Source: an uncultured Candidatus Saccharibacteria bacterium | GTDB lineage: Bacteria; Patescibacteriota; Minisyncoccia; Phycocordibacterales; UBA918 | NCBI GenBank assembly: GCA_964350645.1 | Contig: CAYGJY010000001.1 | Location: 78,316 to 142,315 of the forward strand | DNA: 64,000 nucleotides | Reading direction: 5' to 3' | Shown: one piece after another, positions 1 through 26,919 of the stretch | How positions within the stretch are numbered: the first letter of the stretch is position 1 | Layout of the letters: each line of letters begins with the position of its first letter | Made by a program: the position numbers and the translations under genes | Notes under the pieces: generated by a model | Told to the model about the DNA's origin: nothing | Databases searched by the model: none | What the model saw: only the letters and a program-made list of their open reading frames with translations

Positions 1-3000
1 TATGTCACCTCAGTCAGCGAGCGGGGTATCACGTGGTATTTCAAAGAACCCGCACTTGTCGGTCGCTACATCACAGGAGACTATTGGGTTATGGGGCCAG
101 TTGAAGTGACTCGCATTACACCGGATGCCGGTAATGATATGCATGGATGGATGGTGAATCCGCTTGATGATAAAAAGCAAGCCTTTCATAGCTCTACCCG
201 TAGTACTCAAAAAAATACTTATGATCGAACGCTCATGCCGAGTCTGCCGTACACGGCTAATCCAGGAGATTCATTGATTAAGGCTATTACTAATTCCAAT
301 GACCAACGATTCCGCACCGATTATGCATCGGTACTCACAGTAGTAGATATTGTGCCGCCAAGTGATGCGTTTCGTCCAGCGTACGCAGGTACAAAAAAAG
401 ATACGTACCGTGTGAGCGAATTACGTACCAATTTGTTGCCGAGCGCCGTCCCGTCCTCGATTAATGTACCTTCATGGTCTGAGGTGGAGGGGTACTTTAA
501 CAATGGTCCCTGGATTGATTTCATAACGAGTCACCCGGGTGAGATTGTACACCCGTCATTCCAGATGGGACGATATGGTGGTACTTTACAATTCCAAACT
601 AGCAATGCCATTTTGCGACTGATGATGAATGACCCACTTGCTCAAAAGCTCCCAACCCTACAGTGGGTGGTGCAGTATGCGATTGATCTTGAAGCAATGA
701 TGCTTGAGACTGGTACGGATTTTCCGCCAAACGGCGGCCACGCTGGCGGGAGAAAACTTCCACTTACTCTCGCTGCAGTACTCTTGGACGACCCTGAGAT
801 GACTGCGTTAGTGAAAGACGCTCCAAAAGATCAATTCAATGAAAATGGTAAACATCTTTTTAGTCAAAAAGCCAATAATGGGCAAGGGATAGTGTTGATG
901 GGTGATGCAACTGATAAGGGCAACGAATCACAGTATTGGACTCTAGTTGAGACTGGAAATGGTTTTCGTACCGCAGCTGATCCATATGGATATATTGATG
1001 GGAGTGTACAACCAATTGAAAGTTATCTCTTGGTGTTGAATGTGGCGCCATGGAAAGCGTCAGTGATTGCGTTGCAGCTAATGCCATCACTGAAGCCGGT
1101 CTGGAACGATGAAGATTTTGTGACTGTCACGAAGCGCTATGTGAGCGGTGGACAGTGGACCCAGCCGGACCCGTGTGCGCCAGTCGAGCGAGATGCTCAA
1201 GGAAAGGCAGTGGCTGCAAACAGAGGTGTGACCTATGGGCCAGATGGTCAGGGAGGTTGTATTCTTGATACTGATCCGAGCGACGGAATTGGACGCTTCC
1301 CAAATTTGCACCTAAGTGATCCAGACGCAGCTAGTAAGCGAAAAACCCCGTACGATATACCATTTGCTGATGCTCTCTGGCCAATGTACATAAATGTGAA
1401 TCCAAATGATGTACCAAACACTGAGGCGTTACCAGCCCCAACCGAACCAGCTGCTCCGAGTGCACCGGCCACTAATGGTGCGCTTGGTATCGACCCTATC
1501 CTCCGCGATAAACATATCTTTGATCGTGGCCTCGCTCGGGGTGAGAATAGCGCTACCATTCCACTCTCAGGTACTGCTCCAGCCGGTGCGGTGATTGAAG
1601 CCCGGACTGTCGAAGTCTCTGGTAGTCGCGCCAGCACACCATGGCGTGTGATCGCTACCGCTGGTAATGACGGCCGCTTTGCGGGTACGTACACCCGTGG
1701 TCGTTCGACCGAATACCTCCGCGCCGAAGCGCGCGTACAAGGCACAACCGCTACGGTAGCAACTACCAATACCTTTGGTGTCGGGACGACGATTGCGTTG
1801 CATGGGCAGAGTAATGAAGTGCACTGGATTAAATTTACCGGATTACCAACCGAAGTTGTTATAGATGATGACGCGGTACAGTTTGTGGATATTGCCAGGC
1901 AGTCGGGTGGTCCTGCTGGAGCTGATGCGGTTAAGGTGCGAATGGTGACTAATACAGAACCGCTCGCAACACCAGGAATTAAAGCCTTCGCGAATGCTCT
2001 TATTAGTGGAGTGCCAGGCGAGAAATTTATAGTGAAGTTTGCAACGGTATCTGGTTCAGGTATTCAAGATGAGGTGCAGGATAGAACTGATAGTACTGAA
2101 AGCCCTGTTAGATTTTGGGCTGATGAAGTAGATTTGCATCGTGCGTTTGATCCATATTTTACAGCGGGTCAAACATCGAAGACAGGTTTATTGCTGTGGG
2201 CATATACCAGTGCAAGCAACAACAGTGATATGGAGGCAGATTATGTACCAATGATGCTCGGAATTAAACGCAACGGTACCCCAACTGGCAGTGAGTACGA
2301 TCATACACTAGCCGAGATGTATGACTGGAGTCATACCAAGCTTGGTTTTATTCCGTATGTAGACTCAATCGCGCAAACAACCTCAATACAGAATTTGCCT
2401 GAGAATACAAACTACGCACCGTTTTTGGCAACGCCACACATTGGTTTAAGTCGGTATGGTATTCAACATGGTGAACTCAGAAATGGTGTCTATACCGACT
2501 TAACCCACCCTGGTATTGAACACATGGATGGCACTACACGAGCTGGTCGTACTACCGCTTTTTCCGCGCTGATGATGTTGGGGGCGGTAGATGTGAGTGA
2601 GAATACCTGGGATAAGGTTGTAATTGAGTGGGGTCCAACTGTGAACGGGGTAAAGCGAAGTGATGTAATTCGTATCTCAAAGCCAGAGCACAACTTTACG
2701 ACGTTGCGGCGAGCTAGAGGAGAAACTCGTCTTACTCCTGATGGTACCTGGCGCGATGGCGACGTGTATGGATTTTGGCAAGGAACTGTGCCATTACAAA
2801 AAGCCCAGATTCGTGACCGCGCTGGAAATATTGCTGATAAAGGAGATGTTTGGTTGTTTAAAAATGACGGCTCAGCTTGGACAGCCAATGACCGCGCTAG
2901 TTATGCTCCGCTGACGAGTCGATCGATACGAATTGTTAATCCGGATGACTTCATTGACGTATTTACGTCATCGAATCTTCAGGTCGCTAATTCGTTTCCA

Positions 3001-4674
3001 AAACTGTTGACGGTACCGATGATGGGGATTGCTCAAAGTAATTTGTTGGAAAACAAAGTTGGTCAAAGTAGTAGTGGGCCGGCGCCTTTGCCAACAAATC
3101 CAACTCAACCAACACCAACCCCAACCGAACCCGCTCCTGTAGTCGAACCAGTCACCCCAACCCCAACCCAACCAACACCTGTTACCGCCACCGTCGCCGC
3201 CGGCGATCGCATCCGGGTAACCGAACGTGTCAACGTCCGCGATCCGTACGGCACCAACAGTCCAAGTATTGGTCTTCAAGAAGTGGGTGCCCTGGGTACT
3301 GTCCTCACCATTGCCCCGCAATCAGCTAATGGCTTTACTTGGGTACCGGTTAACTTCGATAGTGGCGCTGATGGCTGGGTAGCTGAGAGCTTTGTGGGTA
3401 AGGTGACGATTGCACCAACACCAGCACCAACCCCAACACCGACCCCAACCACTCCAGTCACTAACCAAGAAGCTGAAAACAACAACCCGAGCGAACCTGC
3501 CCCAACCCTCTCCGACCGTCGCAAAACCGTCACCAACGCCGAGCTACGCGACAAAGTCCGCGAACACCGTCTCGAGCTTGCTCGCCAGGCCACCAAGATC
3601 ACCAAGTTCTTGAATCGTCGTGAGAGTGAATTGAAGCGTGACACTCGCTTCACCTATCCACTTGGACTCTACGACTTCGCTGCCGAAGTAGAACCAGGTA
3701 GTACTGAGACGGTCACTATCACCTTGGATGCACTCTTTGACACTAGCGACTGGGAGTACCGCAAATATAATGGCACTACCGACCGATACACCGACATCTC
3801 AGACCAAGTCACCTACGGCACCACGAACCTCAATGGCACCGACGTGACTACCATCACCTACGAGATTGAAGACAACGGCCCCCTTGATACCGATGATCGC
3901 CTCGGCTTCATTGCTGACCCGGCTGGTCCAGCCTTACCAGAAGGTGAGGAGGTGGTGATTGAAGAAGAAATTACTACTAATAACAGTGGCGGCTCTTCTG
4001 GCGGCGGTGGCGGTTCACGGAGTTCTTCAAGCGGCGGTAGTTCATCAGCAAATTCAAACACTACCAGCGTGAATTCATCTACTGGAGATATCTCTCTCGT
4101 CTCTGCCAACATCTCATTCAATCAGCCAAGTATTAACACCCCAACTGCCGTTAACAATGTGTTGCGTTTCCTCAATACGTTTGAAGGCGAGAACCTTCCA
4201 CTTGATGGTAGCTACGACGTCACCGACAATGCAGCCGTGCAACGCTTCCAACTGAAGTACAAAAAAGAAATCCTCGACATCTGGAATCTGACCGAAGCCA
4301 CCGGCTACGTTGGTATTACGACACGTCTTAAAATGAACTTCCTCATCAAGGGAGCGACCGCCGAGTGTCCGGCTTTCGTGGAATACAACGGTGGACTCTC
4401 AGGCATCATGTTCTCACCTGAGATTGGCAAGACGCAAACGATCCTCAAAGATCTGGGTATGTATCGTGGAGGAATCAATAACACTTGGGATGCTAGCACT
4501 AATCAAGCGCTGATTACCTTCCAAGAAACCTTCCGCGAAGTGATGCTCGACCCGTGGAATATCACAGAAGGTACCGGCTACAAGTACAAGACGACCAACT
4601 TATTCCTCAACTACTTTGCTGGGTGTGATACAGGAGCAGTGGAGTTAGAGGGCGTGGGGCGGTTTGAGATTTAG
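1..4674 (+). CDS. Giant secreted cell-surface protein, 5'-truncated at the window edge; SASA/SGNH-like esterase-like core, SH3b-like domain, Gly/Ser linker, tandem PG_binding_1-like C-terminal domains
   Basis: The frame is open from nt 1, so the listed ATG at 91 is internal. It is paralogous to the downstream 2148-aa ORF over about 550 aa ('ALHGQSN' motif, TLRRARGE..TPDGTWRDGDV). It has an SH3b-like 'AGDRIRV..VNVRDP..GWVAE' region. The C-terminus carries two 'DxxxTxxAVxxFQ' PG-binding-like motifs. About 1527 aa lie within the window. Confidence 0.8.
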   Translation, partial: YVTSVSERGITWYFKEPALVGRYITGDYWVMGPVEVTRITPDAGNDMHGWMVNPLDDKKQAFHSSTRSTQKNTYDRTLMPSLPYTANPGDSLIKAITNSNDQRFRTDYASVLTVVDIVPPSDAFRPAYAGTKKDTYRVSELRTNLLPSAVPSSINVPSWSEVEGYFNNGPWIDFITSHPGEIVHPSFQMGRYGGTLQFQTSNAILRLMMNDPLAQKLPTLQWVVQYAIDLEAMMLETGTDFPPNGGHAGGRKLPLTLAAVLLDDPEMTALVKDAPKDQFNENGKHLFSQKANNGQGIVLMGDATDKGNESQYWTLVETGNGFRTAADPYGYIDGSVQPIESYLLVLNVAPWKASVIALQLMPSLKPVWNDEDFVTVTKRYVSGGQWTQPDPCAPVERDAQGKAVAANRGVTYGPDGQGGCILDTDPSDGIGRFPNLHLSDPDAASKRKTPYDIPFADALWPMYINVNPNDVPNTEALPAPTEPAAPSAPATNGALGIDPILRDKHIFDRGLARGENSATIPLSGTAPAGAVIEARTVEVSGSRASTPWRVIATAGNDGRFAGTYTRGRSTEYLRAEARVQGTTATVATTNTFGVGTTIALHGQSNEVHWIKFTGLPTEVVIDDDAVQFVDIARQSGGPAGADAVKVRMVTNTEPLATPGIKAFANALISGVPGEKFIVKFATVSGSGIQDEVQDRTDSTESPVRFWADEVDLHRAFDPYFTAGQTSKTGLLLWAYTSASNNSDMEADYVPMMLGIKRNGTPTGSEYDHTLAEMYDWSHTKLGFIPYVDSIAQTTSIQNLPENTNYAPFLATPHIGLSRYGIQHGELRNGVYTDLTHPGIEHMDGTTRAGRTTAFSALMMLGAVDVSENTWDKVVIEWGPTVNGVKRSDVIRISKPEHNFTTLRRARGETRLTPDGTWRDGDVYGFWQGTVPLQKAQIRDRAGNIADKGDVWLFKNDGSAWTANDRASYAPLTSRSIRIVNPDDFIDVFTSSNLQVANSFPKLLTVPMMGIAQSNLLENKVGQSSSGPAPLPTNPTQPTPTPTEPAPVVEPVTPTPTQPTPVTATVAAGDRIRVTERVNVRDPYGTNSPSIGLQEVGALGTVLTIAPQSANGFTWVPVNFDSGADGWVAESFVGKVTIAPTPAPTPTPTPTTPVTNQEAENNNPSEPAPTLSDRRKTVTNAELRDKVREHRLELARQATKITKFLNRRESELKRDTRFTYPLGLYDFAAEVEPGSTETVTITLDALFDTSDWEYRKYNGTTDRYTDISDQVTYGTTNLNGTDVTTITYEIEDNGPLDTDDRLGFIADPAGPALPEGEEVVIEEEITTNNSGGSSGGGGGSRSSSSGGSSSANSNTTSVNSSTGDISLVSANISFNQPSINTPTAVNNVLRFLNTFEGENLPLDGSYDVTDNAAVQRFQLKYKKEILDIWNLTEATGYVGITTRLKMNFLIKGATAECPAFVEYNGGLSGIMFSPEIGKTQTILKDLGMYRGGINNTWDASTNQALITFQETFREVMLDPWNITEGTGYKYKTTNLFLNYFAGCDTGAVELEGVGRFEI
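4095..4673 (+). repeat. 579-bp perfect direct repeat, copy 1 (3' end of giant ORF 1)
   Basis: Nucleotide-identical to 10563..11141 by manual alignment. The identical 64-aa antisense ORFs at 4305..4499 and 10773..10967 independently confirm identity. The copies diverge exactly at the last base of the stop codon (TAG vs TAA). Confidence 0.85.
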
Positions 4675-4695
4675 AAAAATAATAATGCATTACTT

Positions 4696-7600
4696 ATGAG
4701 TATCACAAGACATATCTACAAGAAAACAGCGATCACCATTCTCGTGATGAGTTTTGTGTGTTCGGCATTCATTTCTCAACCAGCACAGGCTACCAACCTC
4801 ACCGACCTCCGCGTAGCCCTCGACCAGCTCGAACAAACCTTGCTACAACTCCAGCAGCAATTGCAATTAGCCTCTGTGCCACGAGCTGGGCAGGTGTTGG
4901 GTTCACGTGTCTCTGACACACTTCTCCTTGATGTAGCCTTTTCGCCGAGCGGGATTACTGATCGTTCGAGCTATGGAGCACCAGTGAATCTTAACAGTGG
5001 ATCAGCTCTCGATGTACAAGAAGGCCTGGATGGATACGTCTACAATCTGACAGGCGTCAGTGATTTTCAAATCCCGCGTACAGCAGAGATGCAGCTGTAT
5101 GATCATGAAGAGGTGAGTTATGTTTTTACGGTAAAAAATGATGAACCAACAAAATTTAGAACCGGCGAATTATTCGGTATCCTTCGTTCACAACAGGTCT
5201 TTGTAAAAGATGAAATCACCTACTCACACCAAAGTAGTGACGGTAGTACCTACACCATTCGTTCGTCTGGTGCATCGATTGGAGATCGAGCGTGGCACCA
5301 CGTGGTGATCACAATGAATTCTCTGGAAGAACGAGCGGCTATTTATGTGGATGGAGAAAAAGTGGGTGAAGGGATCGCCAAAGGCAAAACGAAAGGAATG
5401 CAAAGCTGGGGGTTACATTTGGGTAACCCATTTGGTGAAAACTTCAATGGTTTGATCGGTGAATTCCAAATGCACTCCATCGCTCTCTCTGAAAGTGAAA
5501 TTCAAAATCGTGCCGCTGCGTTTGCTGCTAAGGTGGGCAACAGTCCTCAACCAACACCAGACCCAACACCAGACCCAACTCCCGAGCCAGAACCAGTGGC
5601 TGATCCTGTCCCTACGACACCAACCCCTGAACCAGAAACCACTCCGGTTACTACTGAAGCACCAGCGGCTCCCAGCGCCCCAGCTACCAACGGTACACTT
5701 GGCATTGATCCAATTTTGCGTGACAAGCATATCTTCGACCGCGGTCTGGCTCGCGGGCAAAATAGCGCTGACATCCCACTCTCTGGCACGGCACCAGCTG
5801 GATCAGTAGTTGAAGTGCGAACGGTCGAAGTCTCTGGTAGTCGCGCTACCTCACCATGGCGTGTCATTGCGACCGCCGACACCAGTGGCCGTTGGCAAGG
5901 TGCCTATACGCGTGGTCGCTCGAGTGAATACCTCCGCGCTGAAGCCCGGGTGCGCGGCACATCCGGCACAGTTGCGACCGTCAACACCTTTGGGGTGGGG
6001 ACGACCATTGCTTTGCATGGGCAGAGTAGTGACTACCACTGGATTGCGTTTGCTGGTACACCGATGGAAAACGTGATCGATGATAGTGCGATGCAGATAG
6101 TCGAGATTAATCGCGCCTCGGATCCGGCAGATAGCACCACAAGTGTCACAGCAGTTACAAATGCTTGGAAAAATGCGCAGCGTGATTTTGGAAACGATGT
6201 CATTAATCGATCCGGTGTTGTTGCGTTTGCGAATATGCTCATGCAGGGTATTCCAGGTGAAAAATTCTTGGTTAAGTTTGCTGCTGTCTCGGGGACAGGG
6301 ATTCACAGTGAGTTTGAAAACAGTTCTGACTCGCGTCGTAGGTGGCCAGACGAGATGCGTCTCCATAAAGCCTTCGATCCCTATTTTGTTGAGGGTCAGA
6401 AAATGTCCGACACAGGTTTAGTGGCGTGGGTATATTCCTCATCCAACAATCATATTCGATTTGAAACCTCGTATGGACCAATGATTTTTGGTAAATTTCC
6501 TGATGGTCGACCAGTGGTAACCGGCTCGAGTGAATATCCATACGCCCATACGTGGGCAGAATTTTATGACTGGGAACAGAGTCGATTAGGAGTTGGATTT
6601 AATGCTCGCGCTCAAGGAATGAATGCTGCTCGAATGACAGAAAATCCTAATTATAGTCGTCACTTAGCGCCGAATGTTCTAGGACTAAATCGGTTTACAC
6701 AACAAGCCGGGGAATTACGAAGAGGAGTATATATTGATCGTGGTCATCCAGGACAAGAGCATCCAGATGGTACCGTACGAGCAGCTCGTATGGCAGCCTA
6801 TGGTTTGTTGATGCATATGAAGCAAGTGCCAGCCCACGACCTACGACCGTTTGTAGGTGCTGCTATTGAATGGGCTCCAACCTTAAATGGAGTGGCTCGT
6901 CCCGATGCTGTATTGATCACTAATCAAAATCGAGATTACACGACCCTGCGGCGTGCCCGAGGTGAAGCGCGCTTTACACCCGATGGCACCTGGCGAGATG
7001 GTGACGTGACGCACTTCATGATCAATGGGGAGATGGCTCGTAATGTGCGTATTGTTGATGATCAAGGTAACTTGGCGGATAAAGGTAATATCATAATCTT
7101 AAAAAACGATCGATCACATTGGACTACTAGTGATACGCTCACGTTTGGTCTTGAGGTGGCTAGATATGATTGGGAAAACCCCAAAGATCTTGCTGATGAT
7201 GTTCATAAAGATTTGTTGGCAATACCAACAGATTTTCCTCTCATGTGGGTACTTCCAGTGACTGCTCATGATCCAGCGAGTAGCTTTTTCACTAATAAAA
7301 TTGGTCAAGCAAATTCTGTCACTGAATCAGAAGCGGCTGTAGTGACCCCAGGAGTAAACACCAACATAAGTTCACCGACAGTAGACGCTCCTGCTCCCGC
7401 AACTGCAATCGCTACTGCTGGCGATCGGGTGCGAGTCGAACAGAACGTCAACGTGCGTGATCCATTTGGACTGGCTGGTACTCTTATGGGTGTGCAACCA
7501 ATCGGTGCAATGGGGACCGTACTCAACATTGCTCCGCAAACAGCTGATGGGTACACGTGGATCCCGGTTAATTTTGATAGCGGTGTTGATGGCTGGGTAG

Positions 7601-10600
7601 CTGATGCGTTTGTTGAAGTAACCGATGATACTCCTGTCGCGTCACCTGCACCTGCGCCTGCACCAACGGAAACGAACACGCCAACAGATGTACAAACTAG
7701 TTCTACGCCAGTACCGAGTGATGCGATTGTTGTCACAGATAGTGCCTCGCTCAACGCTGCGTTGCGAGCAGCACAAGGCGGAGAGGTGATTGCATTGCAG
7801 CCAAACGCGTCCGGGTATACCTATCGCTCACCATTTCGGCGCGATCTGCAAACCTATGCTGCACCGGTCACTGTCACCAGCGCAGATAAAAATAACCCGG
7901 CGCGTATCAAGCAATTTACCCTCGCACAAGACGGCAACATCGTGCTTGATGGTCTGCATTTTGAAGTGGCGCCTGGTGAGCTTGGTAATCGCGCCGTGTT
8001 ATTACAACTAAGTAGTGTGAAAGATATCGTCGTAAAGAATTCTACCTTTGACGCCGGTGCACCAGGCTTCGCAGAAACTCGGGCTGAGCTTGATGCTACC
8101 GCGGGAGGTATTCAGATCCGGGTAGGTGAGAATGTAACCATTGAAAATAATACTGTTACCCGCGCGTCCTTTGGGATATCGATTTTTGGTTCTGGCGATC
8201 AGCCGTATAACAAAAATATTATTGTGAAGAACAATGATATCAATCGCTTCTTAGGCGATGGTATACGAATCGTTAATTTCGATGGGGTATTGGTAGAGGG
8301 CAATACGATCCACACAGTATTTGGTACACCACAATCAGTAAACCACACCGACGTCATTCAGGTGTTTAGTGCCAGCCTCACGAAGCCGTCGAAGAATCTC
8401 ACCATCAGCAATAACTTCCTTAACCCGGGTGCAGGAGAAGGTTCGCAGCTTATCTTCATGCGAAACGAAGCTGTCGATACTGGTGGAGGCGGAGAGCCAA
8501 TGTATTACCAAAACTTCCGCTTTGAAGACAACGTAATTTATGGTCAGCATATTCACGGTATTACCCTGGGAGAATCTAATGGGGTAGTGATAAAAAACAA
8601 TACCTTGCTGTATAACCAAGCGCCCGGCACCTTCGGGGCACCACGTATTTTTGTAAGTACTAAATCAAAGAATGTGGTAGTAGATAAAAATATCGCCCAC
8701 AGTGTGCAGGCTGAGTGGGGTGGCGACAATCTAACTGTCCAACGGGGTTCATTAAATCAAGCAAACTACTATGGTGATCTCTTCGTGAATGCGCTTGGTG
8801 GCACCGAGCTTACCCTGCCTGATTTACGGGCTCTACCGGGTAGTATTATCATGGAGCGAGGCTATGGTGCTGCCGAAACCCGGAAGACTGGTTTTGATTC
8901 GCTCACCGCATTATTTAAAGCTAGTCCGGCTACGAACGATCGTTACGCCATTCAGTTTGATGGTGGTTTGTCGGCTGATGCCAGTGGTGCACTTGGCACC
9001 ACCGCTACCTATCGTTGGGACTTTGGTGACGGCAGAACGGAGACAGGACGAACGGTGACGCATCGGTACGAAACACACGGTACGTATAACGTAACGCTTC
9101 GAGTGACAAAAAATGGACGCACCGACAGTGTGACACAAAACGTGAAAATTGTTGATCCACTACTCGTGAAGCTTGATTTCTCAGACGAGCTGCAAGACGA
9201 ATCGAGTTATGACAGTAGCATTATCGGTGATACGGGAAACTTATTGTCTGGCTTAGATGACCAAGTCTTCAGAACTAAAACCGGTGAACTACTGGAAATC
9301 TCGCGTGGCAACGGACATATCTTTAATCACCAAGAACTATCCTTTGAGTATTGGGTTAAGCCAGAAATACTCAGCAATTGGTTTATGCGCTTACATACCG
9401 CGTTAACCGGTTCATATGGTTCAAATGGATCAATCAATATGGTGCTTACCGATAGGGCTGGTGCCAACCACTCAATTTCTAGCCCTGCTGGAGTGATTGA
9501 AGCGGGTGAGTGGCAACACATTGTGTTTACGTACTCGACCATCACTAACACGATCAGGCTGTATGTAAACGGTACCAAGGTAGCTGAAAGGCCGGCCGGT
9601 GGTCTCACCAAAGGGCCGCAGTCGTGGGGTCTCGTGCTCGGTAGTAGTTTTGGTAGCTCACAAACAGCGGATATTGGATACTTTGAGCTCCGAAGTGATG
9701 AACTGTCAGCGACTGACGTAGCGCGACGCTACAACGCCTTTGCGACGTTGACTGAAAACGATGCGGTAGCAGTGCCAGTGGAACGACCAGTGGATGTGAC
9801 GCCGGAGTTTACGGAAACACCACCCGTCATTATTAATCCAACCACTCCAGCCCGTCCAACTCCAACGGTCCCAACGGTCCCAAGAAACCCAACTTCACCG
9901 GTGTCTAACGACGCGGCGGAGGATACGGAGGTCGTGGTCTCAGCTCCGCTTACCGACCGCCTCAAAACCGTCATCAACGCCGAGTTGCGTGATAAGGTCC
10001 GCGAGAATCGCTTAGAGTTCGCTCGAGTACAAACTAAGATCACCAAGTTCTTAAATCGCCGCGAGAGTGAACTCAAGCGTGATACACGCTTTAGCTACCC
10101 ACTCGGACTCTACGACTTCGCCGCTGAAGTCGAGCCAGGCAGTACCGAAACTGTCACCATCACTCTGGACGCGCTCTTTGAAACTAGTGACTGGACGTAC
10201 CGCAAATACAACCCCATCACTGACCGCTACACTGACATCTCGGATGAAGTGACCTACGGCACCGTCACCAGCAATGGGGAGACAGTCACCGCTATTACCT
10301 ACGAGATTGAAGATAATGGTCCACTCGATACCGACGACCGCTTAGGCTTCATTGCTGACCCAGCTGGTCCAGCACTACCTAATGGCGAAGAAGTGGTGAT
10401 CGAAGAAACAGAAGAAGTGGATGAAACTGAAGACACGATAGTGACGAGTACCAATGGTGGTCGTTCGTCATCACGTGATGATGAGGATAAAGAGGACGAA
10501 CAAGGTGCAGTCGCGACAACTGAAAGTACACCCCGTACTAATCCAGCAAGTACTACCATTCTTCTCGTCTCTGCCAACATCTCATTCAATCAGCCAAGTA

Positions 10601-11142
10601 TTAACACCCCAACTGCCGTTAACAATGTGTTGCGTTTCCTCAATACGTTTGAAGGCGAGAACCTTCCACTTGATGGTAGCTACGACGTCACCGACAATGC
10701 AGCCGTGCAACGCTTCCAACTGAAGTACAAAAAAGAAATCCTCGACATCTGGAATCTGACCGAAGCCACCGGCTACGTTGGTATTACGACACGTCTTAAA
10801 ATGAACTTCCTCATCAAGGGAGCGACCGCCGAGTGTCCGGCTTTCGTGGAATACAACGGTGGACTCTCAGGCATCATGTTCTCACCTGAGATTGGCAAGA
10901 CGCAAACGATCCTCAAAGATCTGGGTATGTATCGTGGAGGAATCAATAACACTTGGGATGCTAGCACTAATCAAGCGCTGATTACCTTCCAAGAAACCTT
11001 CCGCGAAGTGATGCTCGACCCGTGGAATATCACAGAAGGTACCGGCTACAAGTACAAGACGACCAACTTATTCCTCAACTACTTTGCTGGGTGTGATACA
11101 GGAGCAGTGGAGTTAGAGGGCGTGGGGCGGTTTGAGATTTAA
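4696..11142 (+). CDS. Giant (2148 aa) secreted multidomain surface protein: signal peptide, LamG/ConA-like lectin, SASA/SGNH-like esterase-like core, SH3b-like, parallel beta-helix (PbH1) repeats, PKD domain, second LamG-like, conserved unknown domain, acidic linker, tandem PG-binding-like C-terminus
   Basis: N-terminal signal peptide (MSITRHIYKKTAITILVMSFVCSAFISQPAQA). LamG-like motifs 'WHHVVIT..IYVDGEKV' and 'WQHIVFTY..LYVNGTKV'. 'ALHGQSS' and 'DGDVTHF' esterase-like motifs. Beta-helix repeats 'NNTVTRASFGISIFG..IVKNNDINRF..VEGNTIH'. PKD signature 'YRWDFGDGRTETGRTVTHRYETHGTYNVTLRV'. C-terminus identical to the upstream ORF. Only 21 nt separate it from the upstream ORF, suggesting co-transcription. 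Confidence 0.85.
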   Translation: MSITRHIYKKTAITILVMSFVCSAFISQPAQATNLTDLRVALDQLEQTLLQLQQQLQLASVPRAGQVLGSRVSDTLLLDVAFSPSGITDRSSYGAPVNLNSGSALDVQEGLDGYVYNLTGVSDFQIPRTAEMQLYDHEEVSYVFTVKNDEPTKFRTGELFGILRSQQVFVKDEITYSHQSSDGSTYTIRSSGASIGDRAWHHVVITMNSLEERAAIYVDGEKVGEGIAKGKTKGMQSWGLHLGNPFGENFNGLIGEFQMHSIALSESEIQNRAAAFAAKVGNSPQPTPDPTPDPTPEPEPVADPVPTTPTPEPETTPVTTEAPAAPSAPATNGTLGIDPILRDKHIFDRGLARGQNSADIPLSGTAPAGSVVEVRTVEVSGSRATSPWRVIATADTSGRWQGAYTRGRSSEYLRAEARVRGTSGTVATVNTFGVGTTIALHGQSSDYHWIAFAGTPMENVIDDSAMQIVEINRASDPADSTTSVTAVTNAWKNAQRDFGNDVINRSGVVAFANMLMQGIPGEKFLVKFAAVSGTGIHSEFENSSDSRRRWPDEMRLHKAFDPYFVEGQKMSDTGLVAWVYSSSNNHIRFETSYGPMIFGKFPDGRPVVTGSSEYPYAHTWAEFYDWEQSRLGVGFNARAQGMNAARMTENPNYSRHLAPNVLGLNRFTQQAGELRRGVYIDRGHPGQEHPDGTVRAARMAAYGLLMHMKQVPAHDLRPFVGAAIEWAPTLNGVARPDAVLITNQNRDYTTLRRARGEARFTPDGTWRDGDVTHFMINGEMARNVRIVDDQGNLADKGNIIILKNDRSHWTTSDTLTFGLEVARYDWENPKDLADDVHKDLLAIPTDFPLMWVLPVTAHDPASSFFTNKIGQANSVTESEAAVVTPGVNTNISSPTVDAPAPATAIATAGDRVRVEQNVNVRDPFGLAGTLMGVQPIGAMGTVLNIAPQTADGYTWIPVNFDSGVDGWVADAFVEVTDDTPVASPAPAPAPTETNTPTDVQTSSTPVPSDAIVVTDSASLNAALRAAQGGEVIALQPNASGYTYRSPFRRDLQTYAAPVTVTSADKNNPARIKQFTLAQDGNIVLDGLHFEVAPGELGNRAVLLQLSSVKDIVVKNSTFDAGAPGFAETRAELDATAGGIQIRVGENVTIENNTVTRASFGISIFGSGDQPYNKNIIVKNNDINRFLGDGIRIVNFDGVLVEGNTIHTVFGTPQSVNHTDVIQVFSASLTKPSKNLTISNNFLNPGAGEGSQLIFMRNEAVDTGGGGEPMYYQNFRFEDNVIYGQHIHGITLGESNGVVIKNNTLLYNQAPGTFGAPRIFVSTKSKNVVVDKNIAHSVQAEWGGDNLTVQRGSLNQANYYGDLFVNALGGTELTLPDLRALPGSIIMERGYGAAETRKTGFDSLTALFKASPATNDRYAIQFDGGLSADASGALGTTATYRWDFGDGRTETGRTVTHRYETHGTYNVTLRVTKNGRTDSVTQNVKIVDPLLVKLDFSDELQDESSYDSSIIGDTGNLLSGLDDQVFRTKTGELLEISRGNGHIFNHQELSFEYWVKPEILSNWFMRLHTALTGSYGSNGSINMVLTDRAGANHSISSPAGVIEAGEWQHIVFTYSTITNTIRLYVNGTKVAERPAGGLTKGPQSWGLVLGSSFGSSQTADIGYFELRSDELSATDVARRYNAFATLTENDAVAVPVERPVDVTPEFTETPPVIINPTTPARPTPTVPTVPRNPTSPVSNDAAEDTEVVVSAPLTDRLKTVINAELRDKVRENRLEFARVQTKITKFLNRRESELKRDTRFSYPLGLYDFAAEVEPGSTETVTITLDALFETSDWTYRKYNPITDRYTDISDEVTYGTVTSNGETVTAITYEIEDNGPLDTDDRLGFIADPAGPALPNGEEVVIEETEEVDETEDTIVTSTNGGRSSSRDDEDKEDEQGAVATTESTPRTNPASTTILLVSANISFNQPSINTPTAVNNVLRFLNTFEGENLPLDGSYDVTDNAAVQRFQLKYKKEILDIWNLTEATGYVGITTRLKMNFLIKGATAECPAFVEYNGGLSGIMFSPEIGKTQTILKDLGMYRGGINNTWDASTNQALITFQETFREVMLDPWNITEGTGYKYKTTNLFLNYFAGCDTGAVELEGVGRFEI
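10563..11141 (+). repeat. 579-bp perfect direct repeat, copy 2 (3' end of giant ORF 2)
   Basis: See copy 1; the offset is 6468 bp. Confidence 0.85.
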
Positions 11143-11168
11143 CCAACTAACTGGGCAACGCCACAATC

Positions 11169-11191
11169 AAAACCACCGCAAGGTGGTTTTT
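11169..11191 (+). terminator. Intrinsic terminator after giant ORF 2
   Basis: aaaaccacc-gca-aggtggtttt hairpin followed by a T-run. Confidence 0.6.
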
Positions 11192-11305
11192 GATTTGTGT
11201 GTAATCCACAGAATTGATTTGATACTACGATTGGGCTACTAATATAAGCTATACTATATATAATAAAGCTAAAATATTAGCCAATTACCAATTTAGTGTA
11301 TTGTT

Positions 11306-12016
11306 ATGAGTTACGAACGACTAGCTAGAATCATCAGGGGCTCACTGTATGAGTCGTTGATTGTATTTGCACTCATAACAATCGGTTTTATGTTCCTCGA
11401 AGCAGGTATCAGTCGGGCCCAGTTGTTCGATGAATTTACCGTCACACAATCAATCACAGGTGAAGTTTCTTTCCAAACTAATGAAAATGACGTTGCTATG
11501 AGCACTGCAATTGCTGGTGTGACCGGTGGTCGGGCTACGGGAACAACAGTAGCAGTTGTCACGACCAACAGTGCCACTGGTTATACTATTGATATTGATT
11601 TTTCAGATACCCCAGCAATGAATCGAAATGGTAGTGGTGGAGCTGATTTTATTAGCAATTACACGCCGGCAGGAACGACCTCGCCGACAGTAAGCTTTGC
11701 TATTGGTGGTTCTGGTACAGCTGGTGAATTTGGCTATACCGTTGCAGCATCAACTAGTTATCATGTTGCACCTGAATTTAGAGGTAATGGTACAACTCTT
11801 TGTAACACTGGGGCAGGAGGAGTATTTACTGTAGATCAGTGTTGGCAAGCACCAAGTACTATTGCACGTGAAATTATTAACTCCACTTCCTCAACACCAG
11901 CGAACGGCGCCACAACGACGGTGAAGTTTGTCGTAGCAGTGCCAAGCTCTCCGAATCCGGCCTTACCAACTGGAGACTACGTAGCAACTGTCACGTTGAC
12001 TGCAGCTACCCAATAG
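11306..12016 (+). CDS. Secreted/surface protein of unknown function (N-terminal TM/signal, Thr/Gly/Ala-rich); paralog of 13136..13885
   Basis: N-terminal hydrophobic segment. The C-terminus '..PTGDYVATVTLTAATQ' resembles '..PGDYVATTTLTLLSL' of the paralog. First gene of a four-gene envelope cluster. Confidence 0.65.
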   Translation: MSYERLARIIRGSLYESLIVFALITIGFMFLEAGISRAQLFDEFTVTQSITGEVSFQTNENDVAMSTAIAGVTGGRATGTTVAVVTTNSATGYTIDIDFSDTPAMNRNGSGGADFISNYTPAGTTSPTVSFAIGGSGTAGEFGYTVAASTSYHVAPEFRGNGTTLCNTGAGGVFTVDQCWQAPSTIAREIINSTSSTPANGATTTVKFVVAVPSSPNPALPTGDYVATVTLTAATQ

Positions 12017-12024
12017 CTTAGACT

Positions 12025-13125
12025 TTGGTGGTAATGGCTTCTGTGCAATTTTATTTTATTAAGCAGTCACTTTGCATAAGTGGTGCACTGATTGGGTTAG
12101 TTGCCCTCGGGGCACCTTTTTTGTTTGCTGAGGCTCAGGTAAATGAGATTGCAGTCGAATCGGCTACAGCAACAGACATGTCTGCGAGTTCGCCAGCCAG
12201 AAGTTTTGATCCAGCTGACTTCGGTATTTCGGTCGAGACGCTACCAAACGCTAGTGATGTGATTGGAGATTTTGTAGTTGGACCAGGTAAGTTTGAGACG
12301 GCGTTGCAACCAGGTGAGTCAGTCACTACTGAGATATTAATTTCAAATCGCACAGGTATTGATCGCCGATTTAATATTGAGATTGAGGATGCCGCTGGTT
12401 CAGTTGATGGCTCTGATTCGATTGTGTTGCTTGGAGATGACCGGGGGCCATACTCTATAAAAGATTATATTGATGCACCAACGTTATCTTTTGATTTACG
12501 ACATGGAAAGCGTGCTCGTGTACCCGTTACTATCACAGTGCCGCCAGATGCTGAGCCAGGAGGTCTGTATGGTAGCGTCCTAATCAATACTGTTTCGGTT
12601 CCGATAGAGCAGGAAATTCAGGCTGGACAGGCTGCTGTTCGTTCACCAATTGTACAGCGAATCGGGGTACTGATGTTTGTCACAGTACCAGGTGATTCTA
12701 TCTATGAGGGGGGGCTTAAGGATTTCAGGATTATTCCTGAGAAAAAGTGGTTTAATGATGGGCCGTTCAATTTTTTAATTACATACGAAAATACTGGTTT
12801 GAGTCACTTGAACCCGTATGGTGAAATTCGGATTACTAATACACTTGGGGAAGAGGTTGGCTTCGTTGAATTACAGCCTTGGTTTGCCTTACCGCAGTCG
12901 GTCCGCATTAGGGAAGTAACCTGGAATCGTAGTATGCTGTATGGTAAGTATACGGCAACTATATCTCTTAACCGTGGTTACGAAGACATAGTCGACGAAT
13001 TGGCATACAGTTTTTGGGTTATTCCATGGAAGCCAGTAGCAGGAGGTTTTGCGCTGGTGTTTGTACTGTTATTTTTATTACGTAGTTTCTTTAAGAAATT
13101 TGAATTTAAACGTAAAGATTCATAA
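12025..13125 (+). CDS. Cell-surface protein with N-terminal signal and C-terminal TM anchor plus basic tail (DUF916-like architecture)
   Basis: Signal-like N-terminus. C-terminus 'WKPVAGGFALVFVLLFLLRSFFKKFEFKRKDS'. The architecture resembles the membrane-anchored component of Gram-positive WxL-type surface clusters; this is analogy only. Confidence 0.6.
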   Translation: MVVMASVQFYFIKQSLCISGALIGLVALGAPFLFAEAQVNEIAVESATATDMSASSPARSFDPADFGISVETLPNASDVIGDFVVGPGKFETALQPGESVTTEILISNRTGIDRRFNIEIEDAAGSVDGSDSIVLLGDDRGPYSIKDYIDAPTLSFDLRHGKRARVPVTITVPPDAEPGGLYGSVLINTVSVPIEQEIQAGQAAVRSPIVQRIGVLMFVTVPGDSIYEGGLKDFRIIPEKKWFNDGPFNFLITYENTGLSHLNPYGEIRITNTLGEEVGFVELQPWFALPQSVRIREVTWNRSMLYGKYTATISLNRGYEDIVDELAYSFWVIPWKPVAGGFALVFVLLFLLRSFFKKFEFKRKDS

Positions 13126-13135
13126 CCGCAGACCT

Positions 13136-13885
13136 ATGAAGCGGATGTTCATTAGTACAATTGTTTGTTTGACGATTATAACTGGCTTGCATGGTGCAGA
13201 GGCACAAGTTCGGAGCAGTTCAAATTATCAAATTCAAAGTGACAGCGTTAATTTTGCTGGTGGCCGTTCGACGTCAACTAATTATGTGCAAGAATCAACG
13301 GCTGGGGAGGTAGGTACTGGTGAATCAACCAGTTCCTCGTATGTGTTAAGAGCAGGATATCAGCAGATGCAGGAGGTATTTTTATCCTTAGCCGGTGGAG
13401 CTGATGTAACCATGAGTCCGAATATTCCAGGTATTACTGGGGGTGAATCAAATGGCTCGACAACGGTAACAGCCCTCACTGATAGCCCGTCAGGGTATCA
13501 GCTCACTATTGAAGCGTCAGCGAGCCCAGCGATGGTAAGTGGGGCAAATACAATAGCCGATTATGTTCCAGTGGGAGTTGTGCCAGATCTTCTCTTTACG
13601 ACAGCAGGAGCTGATGCTCATTTTGCGTTTTCTCCTTTTGGTAGTGACGTGGTGACTCGGTTCCAGACTGACGGATTAGATTGTGGAGTATCAGGTTCTG
13701 CATCGACGACTGCTTGTTGGGACGGGCTGTCTACGACAGCAGCCGTGATTGCTTCAAGTATTTCAGCCAATCAGCCAACCGGTTCCGACACTACGATATA
13801 CTATAGAGTAGGGGTTGGTGGTTCAGCGAATCAAGCTCCAGGTGACTATGTGGCCACCACCACCCTGACACTTTTGTCATTATGA
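13136..13885 (+). CDS. Secreted/surface protein, paralog of 11306..12016
   Basis: I chose the ATG at 13136 (MKRMFISTIVCLTIITGLHGAEAQ signal peptide) rather than the track's overlapping upstream start. The C-terminal motif is shared with the paralog. Confidence 0.65.
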   Translation: MKRMFISTIVCLTIITGLHGAEAQVRSSSNYQIQSDSVNFAGGRSTSTNYVQESTAGEVGTGESTSSSYVLRAGYQQMQEVFLSLAGGADVTMSPNIPGITGGESNGSTTVTALTDSPSGYQLTIEASASPAMVSGANTIADYVPVGVVPDLLFTTAGADAHFAFSPFGSDVVTRFQTDGLDCGVSGSASTTACWDGLSTTAAVIASSISANQPTGSDTTIYYRVGVGGSANQAPGDYVATTTLTLLSL

Positions 13886-15489
13886 TTAGAGCGTGCGTAG
13901 GCACAGTATGTAGTTTTATTTGTTTGGCTTTTGTATTGCCAGGGAGTCTTTTTGCGGCAACTGATGATTCGTTTACGGTAACACAAACTATCAATACCCT
14001 TGATCCAGTGCCGCCAACTACTCCTTTGAATTTCACTGTGGTGCCAGTAACGAGTAGTCAAATCAATTTAGATTGGGATCCGTCGTCAGATAATATTGGC
14101 GTTGATGGCTATCAGGTGTTTCGAGATAGTGTTCAGATTGCTACTACTAGTGCTACAGCCTATTTTGATACAGGCCTTACTCCCAGCACAACGTACGCAT
14201 ATAATGTAATTGCGTTTGACGTGGCGCGTAATTTTTCAACTTCAACCGCAGTGTTGTCGACAACGACACTGCCTTTTATAGCAACGACTACGTCACCGAC
14301 GGCTACCAGTACTGGAGGAGTGAGTGGCTATTATCTTCCTGATATTGAACTTATTGATATACGCAGTCAGTCGAGTGAGGATTCGATTGCTCTTGAATTT
14401 ACCACTAATAGATATGCTCGTTTCACTATCAGGTGGGGCCGGACGAATAGCTATGAACTCGGGTATACCGGTACAGATGTATTTCAAAAAGAACACCGGA
14501 CTTTTATTGATTCACTGACACCCGGTACCACGTATCAGATTGAGATCATTTTGCTAGATGAATTTGGTTTGTCACAGTTGCGGTATCAAACCGAAATTAT
14601 CACAAAACCAAGACCGGACGACCAGCCGCCAGCGAACGTAAGTGGGTTGACCGTCTTTGATTTGGATGAAGTGTTACAACTTACTTGGCAAAACCCGCCG
14701 TTAGATGATTTTGCTAAGGTGCGCGTTTTAAGTAATGATTATTTTTATCCGATTCACAGTGCGGATGGCTGGTTAGTATATGACGGTACAGGTGAGACAG
14801 TAATTGATCGACGATCATTAGCTTCAGGAGCCACTCGCTATTACACTGTTTTTGTATATGACACCGTAGGTAATATTTCTTCTGGTGCAATTGTGGCAGT
14901 TACGAGAGATGAAAATGGAGCAGTGACAATCTCTACTTCATTTCCAACTATCACCCTGACACCAATTGATGACATATCGCCAGCGGTGCAAGCTATTTTA
15001 GAGCAGCTACAGTTTGCTGATGTGATTTTCATGCAGGATGGGAGTGAGCAACTAGTAGATCATAATCGCATACAACTTTCAGGTTCGCGCGAGACGTTAG
15101 TCCGTCTGGCGTACGATAAAGTACCAGAACACTTAAAAACTATTATGGTGACGTTGCGTGATCCTGATGATGAGAATGCACTTTTCTCTTTCTTGTTGAG
15201 AATAAACCAAGACAAAAGTTATTATGAGGCTCGAGTAGGGGCTTTAGAAAAAGCTGGTGTGTATGATGTGACTGTGACTGTGATTGATTTTAAGACTAGT
15301 GCACTAGCGAATCTTGAAGGAGAGATTGAGGTAGTTATTTCTGAAGGGGGTATCAGTTCAGGTAGCGGTATTCGGCCGACAACGTGGTTGATGCAGCTGC
15401 TGCCACTGGTTGGATTAAGCTTACTATTATTGCTGATCACATTACTTATTATTAAGCGCCGGTATACTGCTGAGGATAAAGGTCTTTAG
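13882..15489 (+). CDS. Surface protein with fibronectin type III domain(s), C-terminal TM and possible LPxxG-like sorting signal
   Basis: Signal peptide. FN3 hallmark 'PPTTPLNFTVVPVTSSQINLDWDPS..GYQVFRD..TTYAYNVIAFD'. C-terminus 'LLPLVGLSLLLLLITLLIIKRRYTAEDKGL'. Confidence 0.7.
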   Translation: MIRACVGTVCSFICLAFVLPGSLFAATDDSFTVTQTINTLDPVPPTTPLNFTVVPVTSSQINLDWDPSSDNIGVDGYQVFRDSVQIATTSATAYFDTGLTPSTTYAYNVIAFDVARNFSTSTAVLSTTTLPFIATTTSPTATSTGGVSGYYLPDIELIDIRSQSSEDSIALEFTTNRYARFTIRWGRTNSYELGYTGTDVFQKEHRTFIDSLTPGTTYQIEIILLDEFGLSQLRYQTEIITKPRPDDQPPANVSGLTVFDLDEVLQLTWQNPPLDDFAKVRVLSNDYFYPIHSADGWLVYDGTGETVIDRRSLASGATRYYTVFVYDTVGNISSGAIVAVTRDENGAVTISTSFPTITLTPIDDISPAVQAILEQLQFADVIFMQDGSEQLVDHNRIQLSGSRETLVRLAYDKVPEHLKTIMVTLRDPDDENALFSFLLRINQDKSYYEARVGALEKAGVYDVTVTVIDFKTSALANLEGEIEVVISEGGISSGSGIRPTTWLMQLLPLVGLSLLLLLITLLIIKRRYTAEDKGL

Positions 15490-15543
15490 AAAACCCTGGG
15501 GGTGGCGTATAGTTGTACTATATTAATTTAGGCATATATCACA

Positions 15544-16578
15544 ATGACTCGAGTAGCAATTAATGGTTTTGGGAGAATTGGTCGTACGTTTTTCAAAATG
15601 GCCCACGGTAATCCAGATTTTGAAGTGGTGGCTATTAATGATTTGGGTGACATTGAAAACCTCGCCTACCTTTTAAGCTACGATACTGCCTATGGTCGGA
15701 GTGACATGGAGGTGGCGGTTGTCGAAAATGAATTGCTGGTTGACGGTAAAAAAATTGCCTTCGTACAAGAGCGTGACCCAAAGACACTACCTTGGGGAGC
15801 GATGGATATTGATGTTGTGGTTGAAGCCACTGGATTTTTTGCATCGTACGAAAAATCTAAAATGCATCTTGAAGCTGGTGCAAAGCGGGTGGTCATCTCG
15901 GCTCCAGTGAAAGACAGTGCAGCTGCGGCTGGAGTTACAGGAGAGACCATTCTCATGGGTGTTAATGATGACTCACTCGCTACGTGTACTATTAGTTCAA
16001 ATGCCTCGTGTACGACAAACGCTACGAGTCCACTCGTGGCTATCTTGAAGGAGAGTATTGGTATTGATAAAGCTATTTTAAATACTGTCCACGCCTACAC
16101 GGCATCTCAGGCAATTGTTGACGGACCGAGTCAAAAGAATTTCCGCCTCGGTCGGGCTGCAGCACAAAATATCATTCCAACATCAACTGGAGCAGCAGTT
16201 GCAACAACCCAGGCACATACTGAGCTTGAAGGGAAGTTTGATGGTATTGCCATGCGTGTCCCGGTGCCGGTTGGGTCAATTGTTGACATTACGTTTATTG
16301 CTAGTCGACCGACAACAGCTGAAGAAGTAAACGATGCTCTTAAGAAAGCCGCTGAATCAGACCACTGGAAACACTTGTTTGCTGTGACCGATGAGCCAAT
16401 TGTGTCGTCTGACATTATTGGTGCAGAATTTGCTTCAATTGCTGACTTGCAAATGACGCGCGTCGTAGATGGTAACTTGGTGAAAGTCCTCGCTTGGTAT
16501 GACAATGAAACGAGCTATACACACACACTTGTCGAGCACGTACGCTCAGTAGCCAAATTCTTTAACGCCAAAGGCTAA
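15544..16578 (+). CDS. gap: Glyceraldehyde-3-phosphate dehydrogenase
   Basis: MTRVAINGFGRIGR N-terminus; active-site SCTTN. Confidence 0.95.
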   Translation: MTRVAINGFGRIGRTFFKMAHGNPDFEVVAINDLGDIENLAYLLSYDTAYGRSDMEVAVVENELLVDGKKIAFVQERDPKTLPWGAMDIDVVVEATGFFASYEKSKMHLEAGAKRVVISAPVKDSAAAAGVTGETILMGVNDDSLATCTISSNASCTTNATSPLVAILKESIGIDKAILNTVHAYTASQAIVDGPSQKNFRLGRAAAQNIIPTSTGAAVATTQAHTELEGKFDGIAMRVPVPVGSIVDITFIASRPTTAEEVNDALKKAAESDHWKHLFAVTDEPIVSSDIIGAEFASIADLQMTRVVDGNLVKVLAWYDNETSYTHTLVEHVRSVAKFFNAKG

Positions 16579-16583
16579 ATCAT

Positions 16584-17036
16584 ATGAAACCAAAAATTTA
16601 TTTTGCTGCAGACCACTGGGGGTTTGAGCTTATTCCGCAGCTCGTTGAGTTTGTAAATACTCTTGGTTATGAAACCGAACATTGCGGCCCATATGAGTAT
16701 GATGCGACTGACGATTACCCAGATTTTATTCAAAAAGCAGCAGGATTGGTAGCCGCAGACCCAGAGCACAGTCGGGCAATTATTTTTGGTAAGTCTGGTC
16801 AAGGCGAGGCGATGTGTGCCAACCGCTTTCTTGGTGTGCGTGCAGCCGTCTACTACGGTGGTCCAACGGAAATTATTACTCTTTCGCGAGAACATAATAA
16901 CGCTAATGTGCTCTCACTCGGGGCTGGGTTTATTGATAGTGAACGTGCACAAGCAGCAATTGCGCTTTGGCTCGAGACTGAATTTACAGAGGAAGAACGT
17001 CATGCTCGGCGTCTCGCTAAGTTGGACGTTATATAA
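16584..17036 (+). CDS. rpiB: Ribose-5-phosphate isomerase B (RpiB/LacAB family)
   Basis: 150 aa; 'IFGKSGQGEAMCANR' motif typical of RpiB. Confidence 0.85.
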   Translation: MKPKIYFAADHWGFELIPQLVEFVNTLGYETEHCGPYEYDATDDYPDFIQKAAGLVAADPEHSRAIIFGKSGQGEAMCANRFLGVRAAVYYGGPTEIITLSREHNNANVLSLGAGFIDSERAQAAIALWLETEFTEEERHARRLAKLDVI

Positions 17037-17038
17037 GT

Positions 17039-17707: not shown

Positions 17708-17755
17708 TTTATAAACAAAATTGGTTTTTTATTACCAGCGAGTCATCGTATACTG

Positions 17756-18658: not shown

Positions 18659-18661
18659 ACT

Positions 18662-20264: not shown

Positions 20265-20269
20265 AAACT

Positions 20270-20301
20270 AAAAAGCCGCTGCCCTAGGGCAGCGGCTTTT
20301 T
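20270..20301. terminator. Bidirectional intrinsic terminator between the pilin (+) and the PfkB kinase (-)
   Basis: aaaaagccgctgccc-ta-gggcagcggcttttt, a perfect palindrome flanked by A- and T-runs. Confidence 0.8.
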
Positions 20302-20317
20302 AGTTTCGTAAGCTGAT

Positions 20318-26876: not shown

Positions 26877-26880
26877 TCGT

Positions 26881-26919
26881 GAGCCACCTGTCAGACTTGA
26901 ACTGACGACCTGCGGTTTA
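26881..26919 (-). repeat. Exact 39-bp duplicate of the 3' portion (anticodon-loop position 36 to 3' end plus 1 nt) of the adjacent tRNA-Thr; not an intact tRNA
   Basis: Identical to 26992..27030. It lacks the 5' half (no GCCACCT acceptor strand). A 24-nt palindromic hairpin (cgtcaacgtcagttgacg) follows it. Confidence 0.8.

Follow-up and report, generated by a model that had tools for sequence, protein, structure and literature searches.

Introduction

The sapA homologues of Campylobacter fetus, a set of S-layer genes, carry a conserved anchor-coding segment of a few hundred base pairs beside variable bodies, and this segment is a substrate for recombination. It lies at the 5' end of the genes and serves promoter or cassette inversion for antigenic variation. 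Here we analyze two tandem giant genes, g1 and g2, that share an anchor-coding segment at their 3' ends, in a 64-kb stretch (64,000 nt, hereafter the window) of contig CAYGJY010000001.1 from a Paceibacteria bacterium of the candidate phyla radiation (CPR, or Patescibacteria). Both genes end in the same 579 nt, which encode a predicted peptidoglycan-binding module, and we consider it likely that recent gene conversion across the whole module explains this identity. Nothing resembling the 5' segment and the inversion of the sapA family is found at this locus.

In Lactobacillus acidophilus, the S-layer genes slpA and slpB share a two-repeat C-terminal wall-binding region, and the copies recombine (PMC3666127). 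These genes differ from g1 and g2 in standing in opposite orientation, with one of them silent and a chromosomal inversion that swaps them at a single promoter. Their anchor is of the SLAP type and binds teichoic acids, whereas the anchor studied here is built of PG_binding_1 domains, in direct, intact genes that are probably co-transcribed. The outer-membrane adhesin genes babA, babB and babC of Helicobacter pylori resemble g1 and g2: they are surface-protein paralogues whose bodies vary but whose ends are highly homologous, and non-reciprocal recombination between them yields chimeric genes (PMC4552749). The intragenomic conversion acts on the homologous end segments, and in the homologous 3' region it is hard to see, the copies being so similar (PMC4552749). 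The bab loci, however, are dispersed rather than tandem, their conversion alters expression, with phase variation via 5' CT repeats, and the shared part is a Gram-negative beta-barrel membrane anchor, not a peptidoglycan-binding module.

Cassette systems work with silent copies, inversion or a recombinase, none of which is seen here. The behavior of g1 and g2 matches the classic concerted evolution of bacterial surface-protein paralogues; the host and the anchor family are new. A literature search for gene conversion among the surface proteins of Patescibacteria gave no paper on the subject.

Results

An exact repeat forms the 3' ends of g1 and g2

A sequence-only reading of the window had described a perfect 579-bp repeat that ends both genes. 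Repeat finding and direct string comparison confirm that the two copies (Table 1) are identical at 579 of 579 bases, and show that each comprises the last 192 codons and the first two stop-codon bases (TA) of its gene, both genes lying on the same strand. To the left, the identity breaks at the base preceding each copy (4094/10562). To the right, it stops where that reading had placed it, at the third base of the stop codon, which is G at 4674 in g1 (TAG, 4672-4674) and A at 11142 in g2 (TAA, 11140-11142). The copies start 6468 nt apart and enclose a unique spacer of 5889 nt.

At 78% identity, the value found in the nearest alignable homologous region upstream, 579 matches in a row would occur with a probability of about 6e-62. 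The module is present in only two copies in the window, both of them in genes on one strand. The copies contain no Ns, and each runs in frame from its own unique linker into its own unique 3' flank.

Synonymous sites change abruptly at the module boundary

Outside the repeat, g1 and g2 are distant paralogues. The body module that they share has 53% protein identity with saturated synonymous sites, and the low-complexity linkers adjoining the repeat align at just about 40%. In the choice-of-anchor-U regions, upstream of these linkers, the two genes are 78% identical in DNA and 86.8% in protein, close to the 85% previously estimated. Over the 160 codons compared there, the proportion of synonymous differences (pS) is 0.65, the synonymous divergence (dS) about 1.5 and the non-synonymous divergence (dN) 0.14, and the longest exact run is 17 nt.

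The last 192 codons show no difference at 129 synonymous and 447 non-synonymous sites. The 95% upper bound on their dS is 0.023, no more than about 1.5% of the neighboring divergence, and even at a dS of 0.1 the absence of any synonymous change would have a probability of 2e-6. The module is therefore a high-identity tract set off from its homologous flank by a discontinuity at synonymous sites, the pattern by which gene conversion is recognized, and its synonymous identity cannot be explained by purifying selection on the protein.

Paralogous modules within other single genomes are diverged, with amino acid identities of 50% and 46.5% in two metagenome-assembled genomes (MAGs) and 37% between tandem genes on a further contig (L054). 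Module identity is therefore not a property of the family, and homogenization is an event and not a rule.

The exchanged part of the genes also stands out in base composition. The GC content at third codon positions (GC3) is 0.59-0.61 in the segments of both genes that comprise the choice-of-anchor-U region and the anchor module (3511-4671 and 9952-11139), compared with 0.44 in the rest of g1 and g2 and 0.41 +/- 0.06 in 30 other genes. Across the other genes and the g1 and g2 bodies, a value of 0.589 is reached in none of 123 sliding 576-nt windows. The high GC3 could reflect GC-biased gene conversion in a recurrently exchanged part, or a different origin of this part.

Probable replacement of the g2 module after the split from a related strain

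The sole close relative in the collections is a 27.8-kb contig (L057) from the Logan assembly of run ERR3534996. It is syntenic with window positions 4893-20293 at 97.2% nucleotide identity. Downstream of g2, the synteny takes in nine complete genes and the larger part of a tenth, clipped by the contig end. Its g2 orthologue (P0018) has 95.3% amino acid identity to g2. The module diverges from that of the relative at 31 of its 579 sites, whereas the g2 body differs by 0.77% (Table 1), and the probability of at least 31 mismatches given the background is 3e-10.

A three-way comparison shows that g1 and g2 of the window agree with each other, against g2 of the relative, at 31 of these 31 sites. 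Across the choice-of-anchor-U region, sites mainly follow the pattern expected of orthologues: the two g2 genes agree and g1 differs (87 sites). For the g2 half of the test, the module thus groups with its paralogue rather than with its orthologue, as gene conversion predicts. Taken together, the agreement at all 31 sites and the excess divergence of the module indicate that it was replaced in one of the lineages after the two strains split, by a sequence identical to the adjacent g1 module, in support of the recent conversion proposed from the sequence. A homologous module already ends the relative's g2, in the same place and after the same linker; the event therefore replaced an existing module and did not add one.

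Upstream of g2, the relative carries another giant gene (at least 3231 aa), glycine-rich and without the module, followed by a terminator-like hairpin and a gap of 412 nt before g2. The sequence-only reading had suggested comparing one against two copies in related genomes; at this locus the relative has one, g2 with its module, and no adjacent g1. The tandem arrangement of g1 and g2 is thus not conserved in the sole close relative, and no g1 orthologue was found in the searched protein collection. Recombination between the 579-nt repeats would remove g2 and not g1, and does not account for the arrangement in the relative.

Two further regions of g2 carry traces of exchange. At 13 clustered sites in 10233-10344, g2 of the relative matches g1 of the window rather than g2, which implies a second, separate exchange: either the other strain recombined with a g1-like gene, or the window strain received sequence from a third donor. 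Over its first 1.5 kb, signal peptide included (4674-6173, compared with 9589-11475 of the relative), g2 is 7-40% diverged, as against less than 1% in the next 4 kb. At the protein level, the N-terminus of each strain's allele shares different residues with the N-terminus of full-length g1 (P0017). The 5' end of g2 is thus a second recombination mosaic, a strong one between the two strains, with the synteny breakpoint lying inside the gene. The patch and the 5' mosaic suggest that exchange between these genes is recurrent.

Two contigs of metagenome Ga0136601 (L051 and L052) both start inside the module, share an identical 127 nt and differ in several positions before the stop codon. They then enter unrelated genes, one ArgRS-like as judged by its translation and the other coding for a membrane protein. 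These contigs are possibly a second instance of module homogenization.

The module is a double PG_binding_1 domain

Two PG_binding_1 three-helix bundles make up the 192-aa C-terminal module that the repeat encodes. Searched alone against PF01471, the module scores 30.3 bits, above the cut-off of 23, and 27 of 27 aligned homologues match the family; the whole giant proteins score 22.2 and 21.5 bits, just under it. AlphaFold2, run on a 15-sequence alignment, predicts two three-helix bundles and a terminal beta-hairpin, with a predicted local distance difference test score (pLDDT) of 84.4. The best Foldseek matches of this model in the PDB are nearly all PG_binding_1-containing proteins, among them CtpB, the N-domain of SleB (TM-score 0.71 on the target), a peptidoglycan-binding protein of C. 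difficile, the Zn DD-peptidase 1lbu and endolysins. The first six matches have probabilities of 0.90-1.0 with E-values of only about 0.2-0.6, and a profile search of PDB sequences agrees with the assignment. The peptidoglycan-binding label given by the sequence-only reading is thus well founded.

With the PG_binding_1 domains of SleB, CtpB, the Zn DD-peptidase and phage endolysins, the module shares an above-threshold family match and the predicted three-helix-bundle fold. It differs in that two such domains are fused into one fixed unit, roughly 190 aa long, that carries two invariant Cys residues and a terminal beta-hairpin. The unit stands at the extreme C-terminus of large, non-enzymatic-looking secreted Paceibacteria proteins, while in known proteins PG_binding_1 mostly accompanies a cell-wall hydrolase. 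The module is predicted to act as a non-covalent anchor of secreted surface proteins to the cell's own peptidoglycan.

This unit recurs at protein ends. In an exhaustive profile search, 119 cluster representatives matched at E<=1e-30, the module being C-terminal in nearly all of them, and in 55 of 56 open reading frames (ORFs) examined, coding for proteins of 125-2385 aa, it lies at most 25 residues before the stop. Scans of GTDB genomes and JGI metagenomes gave 56 loci with the module (best 76% amino acid identity), none of them syntenic to the window. The GTDB loci all belong to Patescibacteria MAGs, mostly Paceibacteria, or to unclassified or mislabelled ones (27 of 27), and the pairs of 100%-identical modules among the GTDB and JGI loci are one organism re-assembled. 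A word-index search of proteins, with the 192-aa module as query, gave no hit above 85% identity. It overlooked P0017 (100%) and P0018 (97%), which were found by the exhaustive profile search alone; negatives of the indexed search are not readable as absence.

Architecture of g1 and g2

The sequence-only reading had treated g1 as a complete gene in the window. Its frame is already open at base 1, and the window part corresponds at 100% identity to residues 993-2549 of the NCBI protein P0017, the first 992 aa lying outside the window. P0017 has 2549 aa and a signal peptide, and is encoded on an NCBI contig of 464,680 bp, as is P0162, which is identical to g2.

Table 1. Coordinates of the g1-g2 locus in the window, with divergence from the related strain (L057).
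Feature	Coordinates	Strand	Remarks
g1, 3' 1557 codons of a 2549-aa secreted giant protein	1..4674	+	frame open from base 1; stop TAG
g1 contents: body module common to g2, weak SH3-like segment, choice-of-anchor-U, Gly/Ser linker, C-terminal anchor module	1..4674	+	
Choice-of-anchor-U region, g1 copy	3511..3966	+	old paralogous homology to 9952-10407 (values in text)
g1 Gly/Ser-rich linker, sharp left edge of the identity tract	3967..4094	+	about 40% identical to g2 linker
Repeat copy 1, g1 double PG_binding_1 module (codons 4096-4671) and TA of stop	4095..4673	+	exact identity
g1-g2 spacer, 21 nt, without terminator-like site	4675..4695	+	sequence; terminator scan
g2, 2148 aa	4696..11142	+	identical to NCBI protein P0162; stop TAA
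g2 contents: signal peptide, Laminin_G_3, shared body module, beta-helix, PKD, second Laminin_G_3, choice-of-anchor-U, acidic linker, anchor module	4696..11142	+	
g2 body	6174-10073		0.77% divergence from L057
Choice-of-anchor-U region, g2 copy, with patch 10233-10344	9952..10407	+	three-way site comparison
g2 acidic (Asp/Glu-rich) linker, left tract edge in g2	10408..10562	+	about 40% identical to g1 linker
Repeat copy 2, g2 3' end, probable conversion recipient	10563..11141	+	exact identity; 31 differences from L057 module
Module, whole	10563-11141		5.35% divergence from L057 (31 sites; 94.6% identical)
Module, first 391 nt			7.7% divergence from L057
Module, last 188 nt			1 site differing from L057
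Intrinsic-terminator-like hairpin (9 pairs) then T run, 27 nt past g2 stop	11169..11190	+	terminator scan
First kb downstream of g2			0.3% divergence from L057
Downstream 9.15 kb overall			1.6% divergence from L057

A scan of the + strand found no terminator-like site between g1 and g2 and one directly after g2, and the two genes are probably co-transcribed on this account. Both proteins have a choice-of-anchor-U region (NF041766; 44.4 and 43.7 bits, NCBIfam cut-off 32), at residues 1186-1282 of g1 and 1798-1894 of g2, followed by the linker and the anchor module. A residual GGRSSS motif in the linkers is common to both genes and stems from the old duplication. The shared body module of about 650 aa (1471-3400 and 5680-7700; 49-53% amino acid identity) precedes a weak SH3_3-like segment, which in g1 scores 21.9 bits, below the cut-off of 27. 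In full-length g1 this module occurs twice, at residues 294-981 and 1464-2124 of P0017, and it matches nothing in Pfam or among PDB sequences.

Apart from the weak SH3_3 segment, the g1 body segments (window 1-3510) have no Pfam match, and a search of PDB sequences gave one weak match (E=0.69). A suspected resemblance of the gene bodies to GQSN/SASA esterases was backed by no tool and was discarded.

Four secreted or membrane proteins are encoded directly downstream of g2 (11306-15489) and are kept in the relative. The first kind combines a weak WxLIP_PGBD match with a membrane anchor at the C-terminus (one protein), another protein contains fn3, and two small ones have similar 'GDYVAT.TLT' tails. 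This group may be a surface-complex operon resembling the WxL clusters of Firmicutes.

Genomic context

The window is ordinary chromosome, with genes for ribosomal proteins, PheST, GyrB, DnaE, RNase R, GAPDH, a split transketolase, pilins and a sortase. The sortase gene (36943-37698) lies beside genes for several secreted proteins; when ten ORFs, three of them adjoining the sortase, were searched for a C-terminal LPXTG-type signal, none was found. Two adjacent type IV pilin-like genes with the N_methyl motif are tandem paralogues, and a 73% direct repeat extends over their starts (52768-52902 and 53363-53497).

An exact 40-nt direct repeat is present at 26880-26919 and 26991-27030. The second copy is the 3' half of tRNA-Thr(UGU) (26992-27065, minus strand) and the first an orphan copy 71 nt off; the pair looks like an att-type scar of a lost integrated element, or a duplicated tRNA fragment. 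Perfect palindromes of 44 nt (20264-20307) and 38 nt (43479-43516) lie between convergent genes and are probably bidirectional terminators. Such terminator-like palindromes, elsewhere than at g1 and g2, are the only long inverted repeats in the window.

Pfam scans covered the main ORFs (>=120 aa) up to 62.5 kb and found no recombinase. Cassette-type antigenic or phase variation of the sap, slp or pil kind was rejected, the two module copies in the window both lying in intact genes on one strand. A diversity-generating retroelement was likewise set aside, as the repeats are identical and both coding and no reverse transcriptase domain occurs in the scanned ORFs. A mobile-element origin was discarded as well, these ORFs containing no reverse transcriptase, recombinase or transposase.

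Discussion

Probable gene conversion of the anchor module

The exact identity of the two modules, the discontinuity at synonymous sites and the three-way comparison with the related strain argue for recent gene conversion. The genes g1 and g2 are old mosaic tandem paralogues encoding giant secreted surface proteins, in which the module forms an island of homology bounded by unalignable low-complexity linkers on the left and by the stop codon and unrelated DNA on the right. Intrachromosomal, non-reciprocal homologous recombination, presumably of the RecA type, would have copied one module onto the other over the whole island, erasing all differences. Heteroduplex or repair synthesis would reach the edges of homology and not pass them, so that a tract spanning the whole island is what such an event would be expected to leave. 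The most parsimonious direction is from g1 to g2, in the window lineage and after its split from the related strain, because a single event then accounts for the identity of the two modules as well as for the excess divergence from the relative; in the reverse direction, another replacement, in the relative, would be required.

RecA-type recombination between the 579-nt direct repeats could also pop out g2 (6468 nt) or amplify it. The view of the sequence-only reading that the repeat offers a substrate for deletion of g2 is sound as a prediction; such a deletion is not observed, and the sole relative lacks g1, not g2.

Several points weigh against gene conversion as described. That the two copies are exactly identical is known from a single deposited assembly. 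The sole close relative has no g1 at the locus, which makes the test of paralogue against orthologue clustering feasible for g2 only. The direction is unproven: the module of the relative could be the replaced one, with transfer from g2 to g1 in the window, at the cost of two events. The Pfam scans show neither recA nor another recombination gene in the 64-kb window. Lastly, the tract ends coincide with the module ends, which is expected for a homology island and would also fit a cassette-type exchange.

Alternative explanations

Conversion in the reverse direction, g2 having overwritten g1 in the window while another paralogue replaced the g2 module in the relative, is in our view unlikely. 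Three-taxon site patterns are unrooted, and the patch at 10233-10344, in which the relative matches g1 of the window, indicates that its lineage may have exchanged with a g1-like gene. This explanation, however, requires two independent replacements of one module instead of one. The relative has no second module copy within 10 kb, and the searched protein collection holds no g1-like protein from its sample or any other.

On a broader and more speculative view, which we regard as rather improbable, the double PG_binding_1 tail would also be a conserved 'homology handle' with which Paceibacteria swap, remove and multiply the bodies of their giant proteins for host interaction, the exact repeats being kept by recurrent, possibly GC-biased, conversion. 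If true, this would mean pop-out or amplification of g2 within the population and recombination-based surface variation for genome-reduced episymbionts.

The possibility that the identical 579 nt were made by the assembler or by polishing, the modules really differing or only one existing, appears very unlikely. Assemblers classically stumble over exact repeats that exceed the read length, and the two Ga0136601 assemblies break in exactly this module. In the window, however, both copies are free of Ns and join different unique sequences in frame at either side, with g1 and g2 on an NCBI contig of 464,680 bp. By reasoning, the repeat graph, with two entries, two exits and one exit leading via g2 back to the repeat, has a single linear traversal. 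The independent Logan assembly shows g2 of a related strain ending in a 94.6%-identical module, so the g2 copy was not invented. Had the true g2 module been like that of the relative, with 31 mismatches, short reads would map uniquely and no collapse would follow. Polishing could at most hide a few differences between near-identical copies, for which recent conversion would still be needed.

We find it highly improbable that the repeats are a maintained recombination device that switches g2 on and off or amplifies it for phase or antigenic variation, comparable to the conserved anchor-coding segments in S-layer gene families. Giant proteins exposed on the surface of an episymbiont are plausible targets of variation, the direct repeats flank the entire g2 body, the first 1.5 kb of g2 shows mosaicism between strains as well, and GC3 is unusually high in the exchanged C-terminal segments. 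Yet silent cassettes were not found in searches of the window, nor were an invertase, an integrase, inverted repeats or a movable promoter, and both genes are intact and share a single transcriptional direction. Tandem and same-genome paralogues of the module elsewhere are not homogenized, and a relative lacking g1 instead of g2 is the wrong product for this switch.

Finally, that one gene without a module gained a fresh copy by illegitimate recombination or domain shuffling is barely credible even though the tract ends exactly at the module boundaries and the left linkers are unalignable, for g2 of the relative already has a homologous module at the same position and linker, both genes keep the choice-of-anchor-U region and the GGRSSS motif from the old duplication, and two precise in-frame junctions would be required.

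Significance

Gene conversion of the g1 and g2 anchor modules reveals no new mechanism; it is ordinary bacterial gene conversion and will not surprise a specialist. It provides a clean case of intragenomic conversion for the CPR/Patescibacteria, whose genomes are small, repeat-poor and mostly known from metagenomes, and one that can be dated to the time since two strains, roughly 1% diverged, separated. In practical terms, anchor modules of this kind break short-read assemblies, as in L051 and L052. The recurrent putative double PG_binding_1 anchor at the C-terminus, found on 119 protein clusters at the threshold given above, aids the annotation of CPR surface proteomes. For the organism, the finding means that homologous recombination actively reshapes giant surface proteins that are thought to mediate attachment to the host.

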